Shown piece by piece: positions 15,603 through 18,048 of a stretch of 64,000 nt of DNA. Each line of letters opens with the position of its first letter. Positions within the stretch are counted from its first letter, which is position 1. Source of the DNA: an uncultured beta proteobacterium (GTDB lineage: Bacteria > Pseudomonadota > Gammaproteobacteria > Burkholderiales > Rhodocyclaceae); the NCBI GenBank assembly GCA_903886975.1, contig CAISOB010000056.1, positions 4,935 to 68,934 of the forward strand. Reading direction: 5' to 3'. Below the pieces are notes generated by a model. The model ran no database searches. It saw nothing but the letters and a program-made list of their open reading frames with translations, and was not told the DNA's origin. The position numbers and the translations under genes are program-made.

Positions 15603-15669
15603 GTCACACCGGAGAAAGCCGGTGTCCAGTTCATCGCCTTTACTGGATTCCGGCGTTCGCCGGAATGAC
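15603..15669. repeat. REP doublet, copy 2
   Basis: GTCACACCGGAGAAAGCCGGTGTCCAGT, 11-nt spacer, ACTGGATTCCGGCGTTCGCCGGAATGAC; between convergent genes. Confidence 0.9.
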
Positions 15670-16004: not shown

Positions 16005-17687
16005 TCAGCCTCCGATCATGTCTTTGTTGGACGCACCCGGCGCGACCATCGGCAGGACCTGTTCGCCCTCTTCGATGCGCGCGTGGATCAGCACCGGACC
16101 GCGCGTGCCCAGCGCCGTGCGCAGCGCGGCGAGCGGCTCTTCGACGTGATTGAGGTCGAGCGTCCGCCAGCCGAAGCCTTCGGCGATGCGCACGAAATCG
16201 GGACCGGTCTGATATTTGGAGGCGAAGACGCGCTCGCCGTAGAACATCGTTTGCTGCTGCGTGACGAGGCCCAGCGAACCGTTGTTCATCAGCACCACCT
16301 TGACATTGACATCGAGTTCGGCGGCGGTCGCCAATTCCTGGATGTTCATCAGGATGCTGCCGTCGCCGGAAAAGCAGACCACCGTGCGCTGCGGTTCGGC
16401 GAGCGCGGCGCCGATCGCCGCCGGCAGGCCGAAGCCCATGGTGCCGAGGCCGCCCGAAGTCAGCCACTGGCGCGGCCGGCGCAGCGGATAGGTCTGCGCC
16501 ACGAACATCTGGTGCTGGCCGACGTCGGTGGTGATCGTCGCTTCGTCGTCGAGGCAGCTGGCGACCGCGTCGATCAGCCCGTAGGACGTGCGCGGATTGC
16601 CGATTCCCGGCGTGCGCAGCGGCTGCGCGGCTTTCACTTCGGCAACGCGCGACAACCAGGATTCGCGCAGCGTGGCTTTGACCCGCAGCAAGAGCTGATC
16701 GAGGCAGGCCTTGACGTCGCCGGTCACACCGATGTGGGCCGTCTTGACCTTGTCGAGTTCGGAACGATCGATGTCGATGTGAATGACTTTGGCGTGCGGA
16801 CAAAAGGTCGCCACCTTGCCGGTTGCGCGGTCGTCGAAACGCGCGCCGACGGCGATCAGCAGGTCGCATTCGTCGAGCAGCAGATTCGTGTAGCGCGCGC
16901 CGTGCATGCCCAGCATGCCGAGCGATAGCGCGTGATCGACCGGCATCGTCCCGAGCCCCATCAAGGTCATCACGGTCGGCAGGCTGGCCTTCTCGGCAAG
17001 TTCCACGGCCTGCCTGGCAGCGCCGGAATGCACGACGCCGCCACCGAGGTAAAGGATGGGCTTTTCGGCAGCGGCTATCATCGCCGCCGCGCGGGCCATC
17101 AGATCGGCGGCCGGCGGCGCGACCGCAGCGGCCACGCCCGGCTGCGGCCAGGTGCTGACCTCGATGCGCTGGTTCTGCACATCCTTCGGAATGTCGATCA
17201 GCACCGGGCCGGGGCGACCGGATACCGCGAGGCGGAAAGCGCGCGGAATGACCTCGAGCAGTTCCCCGGCCGAAGCCACGAGAAAATTGTGCTTGGTGAT
17301 CGGGATCGAGAGGCCATAGGTATCGACTTCCTGAAAGGCATCGGTGCCGATCATCGCGGTCGGGACCTGACCGGTGATCGCGATCAGCGGAATCGAGTCG
17401 AGCTTGGCGTCGGCGATGGCGGTCAATAGATTGGTCGCGCCGGGGCCCGAACACGACAGGCAGACCGCCGGCTGGCCGCTGACGCGCGCCATGCCCTGCG
17501 CGATGAAACCGGCGCCCTGCTCGTGGCGCGCGAGGACATGGCTGATCTGCGTCGATTGCGACAGGGCGTCGTAGACCGGCAGGATGGCGCCGCCGGGGAT
17601 GCCGGTGACGATACGGACGCCCTGCCTTTCGAGCAGGCGCACGACGATTTGCGCGCCGCTCAGGGTTTCGGTTTGATCGCTGGACAT
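16005..17687 (-). CDS. ilvB: Acetolactate synthase large subunit
   Basis: ARHEQGAGF, SGPGATN, GTDAFQE, TSGGLGTMGFGLP and TPP motif GDGSILMN...NN; SD GGAG upstream. Confidence 0.95.
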   Translation of the reverse strand: MSSDQTETLSGAQIVVRLLERQGVRIVTGIPGGAILPVYDALSQSTQISHVLARHEQGAGFIAQGMARVSGQPAVCLSCSGPGATNLLTAIADAKLDSIPLIAITGQVPTAMIGTDAFQEVDTYGLSIPITKHNFLVASAGELLEVIPRAFRLAVSGRPGPVLIDIPKDVQNQRIEVSTWPQPGVAAAVAPPAADLMARAAAMIAAAEKPILYLGGGVVHSGAARQAVELAEKASLPTVMTLMGLGTMPVDHALSLGMLGMHGARYTNLLLDECDLLIAVGARFDDRATGKVATFCPHAKVIHIDIDRSELDKVKTAHIGVTGDVKACLDQLLLRVKATLRESWLSRVAEVKAAQPLRTPGIGNPRTSYGLIDAVASCLDDEATITTDVGQHQMFVAQTYPLRRPRQWLTSGGLGTMGFGLPAAIGAALAEPQRTVVCFSGDGSILMNIQELATAAELDVNVKVVLMNNGSLGLVTQQQTMFYGERVFASKYQTGPDFVRIAEGFGWRTLDLNHVEEPLAALRTALGTRGPVLIHARIEEGEQVLPMVAPGASNKDMIGG

Positions 17688-17739: not shown

Positions 17740-17774
17740 AAAAAACCCCGCTCGGTCTGCACCGGCGGGGTTTT
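17740..17774 (-). terminator. Attenuator intrinsic terminator upstream of ilvB
   Basis: Minus strand AAAACCCCGCCGGTGCAGACCGAGCGGGGTTTTTT: GC stem plus T6 between the leader ORF and the ilvB start. Confidence 0.88.
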
Positions 17775-17792
17775 GGAATCTGCTGTCGCTTC

Positions 17793-17954
17793 CTAAGCTT
17801 CGACTCGCTTCTTTCTCGACCTCGGCGGCGCATAGGCTACCCATACGATGCGTACTACACGTACCACGGGTGCTGCACCGACCCGAATGACGAACGCCGC
17901 CGCCATCGCGAGCGCGATAAGCAGGGTCAGGGCGTGAGCGTCAAATGAAGGCAT
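17793..17954 (-). CDS. ilvBN leader (attenuator) peptide, IvbL-like, 53 aa
   Basis: MPSFDAHALTLLIALAMAAAFVIRVGAAPVVRVVRIVWV...; 16 of 53 codons are Leu/Ile/Val, with five GTA codons in one cluster; stop lies 18 nt before the terminator. Confidence 0.8.
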   Translation of the reverse strand: MPSFDAHALTLLIALAMAAAFVIRVGAAPVVRVVRIVWVAYAPPRSRKKRVEA

Positions 17955-18048
17955 GGTCGACTCGTCAAGAAATGAAACGCGAAGCGCAATTAGAAACGAC
18001 TCTGGCGAAAAAAACAAGCCTTTATTAATCGGCGACCAGGGGCGCCGA

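Follow-up and report, generated by a model that had tools for sequence, protein, structure and literature searches.

The 64,000-nucleotide stretch of DNA analysed here (hereafter the window) carries on its minus strand a two-gene ilvB-ilvN operon encoding the large subunit and the short regulatory subunit of an AHAS of the AHAS I type (Table 1). The operon is preceded by a small leader ORF and an intrinsic terminator, the U-run of which is separated from ilvB by 53 nt, and ilvB itself is provided with a Shine-Dalgarno sequence (AAGGAG at 17699-17694; ATG at 17687). Upstream of the leader, 95 nt away and on the same strand, lies pepN (aminopeptidase N), and the downstream neighbour of the operon is a convergent EamA transporter gene. 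Past the ilvN stop and before the EamA gene, two GC-rich hairpins without U-runs, ATTCCGGCG-AA-CGCCGGAAT and ACACCGG-CTTTCT-CCGGTGT, are found at 15606-15668 on the minus strand; these may represent REP-like elements or a bidirectional stop.

Table 1. Features of the ilvB-ilvN locus, in window coordinates.
Feature	Coordinates	Strand	Basis or remark
Candidate -35 hexamer TTGTTT (relatives TTGCAx)	18012..18017	minus	Putative; aligned with conserved TTGCA(T/A/C) in 7 close relatives
Candidate -10 hexamer TCTAAT	17989..17994	minus	Putative; conserved in relatives
Leader ORF, ivbL-like	17793..17954	minus	53 codons + TAG; start ATG 17954, TAG 17795-17793
Region 1 (UCGGGUCGGUGCAGCACC), 5' strand of protector hairpin 1:2	17869..17886	minus	Minimum-free-energy fold; includes CGGTGCAG 17880-17873
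Regulatory codon cluster, codons 30-39	17838..17867	minus	VVRVVRIVWV
Region 2 (UGCGCCGCCGAGGU)	17819..17832	minus	Pairs with region 1 or region 3
Region 3 (ACCCCGCCGGUGCA), whole terminator 5' arm + loop bases	17758..17771	minus	Antiterminator partner of region 2
Intrinsic terminator	17740..17770	minus	Stem-loop 17770-17746 + U6 17745-17740
ilvB, AHAS I-type large subunit, 560 aa	16005..17687	minus	NF006016, 979 bits (cut-off 870)
ilvN, short AHAS I-type regulatory subunit, 102 aa	15694..16002	minus	NF006036, 157.6 bits (cut-off 128)

Translation of the leader ORF gives the peptide MPSFDAHALTLLIALAMAAAFVIRVGAAPVVRVVRIVWVAYAPPRSRKKRVEA, in which codons 30-39 read GTG GTA CGT GTA GTA CGC ATC GTA TGG GTA, with five GTA among them. 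An earlier note on this DNA had described the 53-codon leader in these terms and had placed the unit of leader and terminator at 17740-17954; both the codons and the coordinates proved exact, with all elements on the minus strand. The leader N-terminus, MPSFD, aligns with MFPSDD, MPRFHNDD and MHFERNDD of relatives, which backs ATG 17954 as the start; no clear Shine-Dalgarno sequence was found for this ORF. The early Leu and Ile codons to which the same note had drawn attention were considered as regulatory codons and ruled out, as they are unconserved in relatives and lie 5' of region 1 and thus have no predicted regulatory role. As to the description of the leader as unannotated, the exact peptide is not among a collection of 15 billion proteins in which the IlvN of the same contig is found, so that the leader ORF has been left uncalled in public annotation. 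Rfam cmscan, with E up to 10, returned chance or terminator-like matches only, e.g., the 3' hairpin of the P6 sRNA.

Upstream of the leader, the conserved arrangement TTGCAx-17-TCTAAT suggests a promoter, with a predicted transcription start at ~17982. The -35 candidate of the window stands 17 nt from the conserved TCTAAT, and TCTAAT or TTTAAT is kept in the window and at the related loci L125, L119, L123, L126, L120, L001, and L002, although the -35 hexamer is weak and was unreported by a strict sigma-70 scanner. The E. coli ilvBN promoter is under cAMP-CRP control. The intrinsic terminator that had been claimed to follow the leader starts 18 bases past the leader stop and reads AAAA-CCCCGCCGGU-GCAG-ACCG-A-GCGGGG-UUUUUU, the 3:4 pairing with its A/U flanks having a predicted energy of -23.5 kcal/mol; the A bulged from the stem caused a simple consensus terminator scanner to overlook it. 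The octamer CGGTGCAG occurs twice, at 17880-17873 and at 17764-17757, from which the earlier note had read alternative pairings, and such pairings are indeed predicted, in that the duplicated CGGUGCA forms part of regions 1 and 3, which compete for UGCGCCG in region 2. In the minimum-free-energy fold, region 1 is paired with 17842-17819, the isolated 1:2 hairpin amounting to -29.5 kcal/mol and the 1:2 duplex to -20.1 kcal/mol, with the Val codons in the apical part. With a transcript ending after the terminator loop and Val codons 30-37 masked by a ribosome footprint, the 2:3 duplex (-18.2 kcal/mol) is predicted instead. Whole-transcript minimum-free-energy folds carrying the ribosome mask always retained the terminator; as such folds are uninformative on a kinetic switch, truncated transcripts were folded instead. 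Folding of the terminator against the antiterminator, which had been put forward as a check, therefore predicts all of 1:2, 2:3, and 3:4, and as modelled these pairings follow the classical protector, antiterminator, and terminator logic: they are mutually exclusive, and on thermodynamic and comparative grounds the codons are so placed that a stalled ribosome would free region 2.

The ivbL regions of Escherichia and Serratia align base for base with the window terminator and with the competing segment. Shared with both are ATGCGCCG in region 2, GATTCC(A/C)AAACCCCGCCGG(T/C)G over the spacer and 5' arm, and CCG(A/G)GCGGGGTTT in the 3' arm, and the alignment of the window with the enteric sequence (A2) contains 19 consecutive identical bases over the spacer and the terminator 5' arm; GATTCCAAAACCCCGCCGG and the GNNCGTGT core are likewise among the nucleotide segments held in common with enteric ivbL. 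Judged from these alignments, the window element is a divergent homologue of ivbL and not a mere analogue, and the likeness to E. coli ivbL-ilvBN that had been remarked upon extends from the shared VVRVV core of the peptide to homology at the level of the RNA. The window peptide has no match among Pfam or NCBIfam models, and PF08049 (IlvB_leader), searched up to E=10, leaves it unmatched while scoring the E. coli peptide at 72.6 bits. However, PF08049 models enteric peptides, and the peptide is not the conserved entity, so that this miss is no argument against homology of the RNA.

The locus is very probably a ribosome-mediated, ivbL-type attenuator of the two-gene ilvB-ilvN operon for a second acetolactate synthase. 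The ilvBN leader-peptide attenuator proposed in the earlier note is accordingly upheld as to its downstream genes, both of which exceed the equivalog cut-offs of NF006016 and NF006036. The assignment draws upon the sequence elements, their conservation, homology to ivbL, the thermodynamics of pairing, limited 2:3 covariation, and a Val-specific GUA bias, with the promoter, leader translation, kinetics, and valine response entering the model as predictions. This model proposes that transcription would begin ~27 nt upstream of the leader ORF. Where no ribosome is stalled, regions 1 and 2 would form a long hairpin with the Val codons atop, region 3 would then be free for region 4, and the terminator would halt RNA polymerase 53 nt short of ilvB. 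Where charged tRNA-Val is scarce, the ribosome would stall on the GUA-rich codons 30-37, melting the hairpin and covering region 1, upon which the freed region 2 may pair with region 3, such that no terminator forms and ilvBN would be transcribed.

Upstream DNA was taken from 40 ilvB orthologues of the family. At all 40 Rhodocyclaceae loci ilvB is preceded by a small, Val-rich ORF whose core resembles VVRVV, and the terminator, CCCCCGCCGG...CCGGCGGGGG-UUUU, was detected at 37 of the 40; the VVRVV core is common to these 40 leaders and to 11 enteric ones. Leader and terminator accompany ilvB despite a different upstream neighbour, several relatives having an acyl-CoA synthetase there. In an alignment of 39 sequences (A1), 80.7% of cells retain pairing in the 2:3 helix, vs. 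33-52% when the partner is slid, and the region 2 core GC(G/A)(C/U)CG is kept in 39 sequences. Pair 117/197 of this helix is compensatory (GC 30, AU 6, GU 2), two more pairs vary by wobble, and the same compensatory column covaries with the terminator 3' arm (U-A vs. C-G), as expected for a strand with two partners. Region 3 hardly varies, which limits the covariation seen in 2:3. Dinucleotide shuffling of each sequence gave weak tests of the 2:3 complementarity in this GC-rich RNA (median z -0.74; p<0.05 in 8/40), and support for this helix was thus drawn from positional conservation and pair counts. From the minimum-free-energy folds a consistent 1:2 structure was not definable family-wide, as partners differ among relatives. 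It was also observed that in nearly all lineages, enterics, Rhodocyclaceae, and other phyla alike, the Val run is interrupted midway by one conserved Arg codon (CGY, giving VVRVV), and that in Rhodocyclaceae this codon makes the palindrome UACGCGUA. Further afield, Val-rich small ORFs occur ~100-270 nt upstream of an ilvB-type match at six loci (L009, L022, L023, L027, L031, and L035) that bear the labels Planctomycetota, 'delta proteobacterium', Nitrospirales (Nitrospirota), Desulfovibrionaceae, Verrucomicrobiota, and Binatia MAGs.

The leader stop of most family members falls inside region 2 (GCG UCG UAG CGGG). In the window it lies 24 nt past region 2, and in the subgroup of the window about 8-23 nt past, and with the stop past region 2 the window geometry is less canonical than that of most of the family. 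The window also carries a 1-nt deletion, GAGG-TCGAG vs. GAGGGTCGG in its close relatives (L119, L123, L125, L126, and L001), which converts the leader tail from APSRVGRR* to APPRSRKKRVEA* and lengthens the ORF but leaves the region 2 RNA intact (17793-17832); a frame-shifted tail over an intact region 2 argues that selection acts upon the RNA and the Val run and not upon the peptide. It is conceivable that the deletion and the displaced stop, together with the lack of ilvN in the sole further genome of this genus, mark a decaying relic, i.e., an ivbL homologue that no longer regulates in this genome. However, this is improbable, as the leader ORF is still open, the Val/GUA cluster, regions 1-3, the terminator, and the promoter hexamers are intact, and ilvB and ilvN are intact and above their equivalog cut-offs. 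In addition, stops 8-22 nt past region 2 occur elsewhere in the close group, which indicates that such a geometry is tolerated.

Of the Val codons in ~1,300 long, high-GC3 ORFs of this genome (a 4.03-Mb, 61% GC assembly), 4.4% are GTA, and in a scan of six frames no site of the assembly other than the leader had five or more in-frame GTA within 10 codons; another GTA-rich site, C27:32748, was rejected as a leader, being the antisense strand of a Tyr/Pro-rich gene. The five GTA codons are thus as striking against a high-GC gene set as the earlier note had held, but they are not peculiar to this genome and constitute a family-wide trait. Among the Rhodocyclaceae leaders counted (L119-L158, L001, and L002), 207 of the 370 Val codons are GTA (56%), vs. 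47/1698 (2.8%) in the adjacent ilvB coding sequences, 3/108 (2.8%) in enteric leaders, where GUG/GUC make up 100/108, and 29/129 in leaders from other phyla. The bias is confined to valine, as A-ending codons reach 56% for Val vs. 2-14% for the other four-fold sets (Ala, Gly, Pro, Thr, Ser, Arg, and Leu) in the same leaders. The genome has one tRNA-Val gene each for CAC, GAC, and UAC (41 tRNAs detected), and GUA is probably decoded only by the single tRNA-Val(UAC); the choice of GUA probably tunes the stall either to this isoacceptor or to a slow rate of decoding. Attenuators are known for biased regulatory codons, of which the rare CUA of leuL is the paradigm (PMC1183508). The bias may in part be structural, with UACGC pairing with GCGUA inside the Val region; however, enteric homologues function with GUG/GUC.

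Nucleotide conservation of GUAGUAGUA and UACGCGUA throughout the family goes beyond what Val coding needs, and the switch might accordingly be read not by the charging of tRNA-Val but by an RNA-binding protein or Rho acting at the GUA/UAG repeats, with translation merely permissive. This is more improbable still than decay, since the GUG/GUC usage of the homologous enteric attenuator shows the GUA motif to be non-essential, all lineages conserve the frame of the ORF and the identity of Val, and the E. coli ivbL homologue is an established ribosome-mediated attenuator. Hardly credible is a functional micro-protein, proposed from the hydrophobic peptide (LTLLIALAMAAAFVI...) and the proximity of pepN on the same strand, with the hairpin ending the micro-protein gene or pepN and ilvBN read from its own promoter, as the peptide is poorly conserved outside the Val run and frame-shifted in its tail, in contrast to the conserved RNA segments, leader and terminator are found with ilvB irrespective of the preceding gene, the scanner finds no promoter-like site in the short gap between U-run and ilvB, and both the region 1/region 3 duplication and the 2:3 complementarity would be purposeless.

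The best IlvB matches are in Rhodocyclaceae at 64-79% identity (Accumulibacter, Propionivibrio, Azospira, Azonexus, and Zoogloea), followed by Enterobacterales at ~63%, and the source that had been called a probable betaproteobacterium is, by its relatives, of Rhodocyclaceae type. IlvN of this type occurs in 51 of 121 genomes of the GTDB family, spread over 39 of its 89 genera. The pepN neighbourhood of the same-genus genome, examined for an empty site, proved not to be syntenic. In an IQ-TREE phylogeny of 47 IlvB sequences, as in a quick tree, the Enterobacterales clade (100/100) nests inside Rhodocyclaceae, the branches that place it there having supports of 99/98, 100/99, and 99/96, and the window IlvB groups with that of Rhodocyclaceae and enterics, sharing a single starred clade with the latter. 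The nesting compared loci L010-L033 (enterics) with L119-L158 (Rhodocyclaceae), and forcing the Rhodocyclaceae IlvB together was 55.8 log-likelihood units worse (p-AU 0.008), for a group that was named only once the first tree was known. Those Rhodocyclaceae leaders that are nearest the enteric clade have GNAP or similar residues at their C-terminus, as in E. coli IvbL. An enterobacterial-type unit possibly acquired by this lineage, as the earlier note had it, is therefore not favoured: given the nested enteric clade, transfer from enterics to this Rhodocyclaceae lineage appears unlikely, and the reverse direction, from a Rhodocyclaceae-like donor to enterics, is more plausible on the IlvB phylogeny and the 51/121 genomes. 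The ilvBN unit and its leader appear to have moved or descended as a whole.

The same note had supposed ilvBN to encode a second AHAS isozyme, and a genome search found a separate ilvI/ilvH-type AHAS on another contig (C106:32166-34339), which makes the ilvBN of the window the second. Upstream of this housekeeping ilvI (C106:34340-35100) neither a leader ORF nor a terminator was found; the interval holds a divergent gene resembling a sigma factor.

The attenuator is well conserved, unannotated, and of a known type (ivbL), and the points of wider interest are the lineage-wide GUA bias and the enteric nesting. An uncalled regulatory mini-gene is predicted to explain control of the second acetolactate synthase here, and the same control would extend to ~40% of Rhodocyclaceae, including relatives of the wastewater-relevant Accumulibacter, Propionivibrio, Azonexus, and Zoogloea, whose leader goes undetected by the present models of Pfam, NCBIfam, and Rfam. 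Association of the attenuator with ilvB seems to reach well beyond Proteobacteria. According to a survey of 2017, AHAS I is essentially confined to gamma-proteobacteria (PMC5727371), beside which its wide occurrence in Rhodocyclaceae may be set. Homologous attenuators that rely on rare GUA in Rhodocyclaceae but on GUG/GUC in enterics offer a natural experiment on regulatory codons vs. the host tRNA pool. More tentatively, and with some doubt, the Rhodocyclaceae ivbL elements, in which the rarest Val codon of the genome is used almost to the exclusion of the others, may have become sensors of a single isoacceptor, the enteric ivbL-ilvBN having come from a Rhodocyclaceae-like betaproteobacterium and having been re-tuned from GUA to GUG/GUC thereafter. 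If so, the operon would answer to the charging or abundance of tRNA-Val(UAC) and not to general valine supply, and the enteric unit would have been acquired leader included. Under simple selective-charging theory, an isoacceptor that is seldom used is expected to remain charged (PMC1183508), and sensors of this kind would provide a clean natural test of that theory.

Among known systems, the leader of Corynebacterium glutamicum ilvBNC (ilvB-II motif) resembles that of the window in its Val/Ile/Leu-rich uORF and three-hairpin model (PMC10272879, PMC11857589). However, it belongs to an unrelated lineage and AHAS type (long small subunit) and has no sequence similarity, and the relation is one of analogy, not homology. 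E. coli ilvL-ilvGMEDA and leuL have in common with the window ribosome-mediated attenuation and biased regulatory codons, but they serve other operons, use multivalent Ile/Leu/Val or Leu codons, and have no sequence homology to it. The closest counterpart is ivbL-ilvBN of E. coli and Salmonella, ilvBN being listed among attenuated operons (PMC1183508). Compared with E. coli ivbL, the window leader has 53 codons vs. 32, a 22-nt insertion follows its region 2 and the ORF runs past that region, its Val codons are GUA and not GUG/GUC, its Val run is interrupted (VVRVVRIVWV), and its peptide is too divergent for PF08049. Nevertheless, orthologous AHAS I large and short small subunits are encoded downstream in both, the leader holds a VV(V)RVV core, the terminator GATTCCAAAACCCCGCCGG..CCG.GCGGGGTTT and region 2 ATGCGCCG align, and the three-pairing logic is the same.
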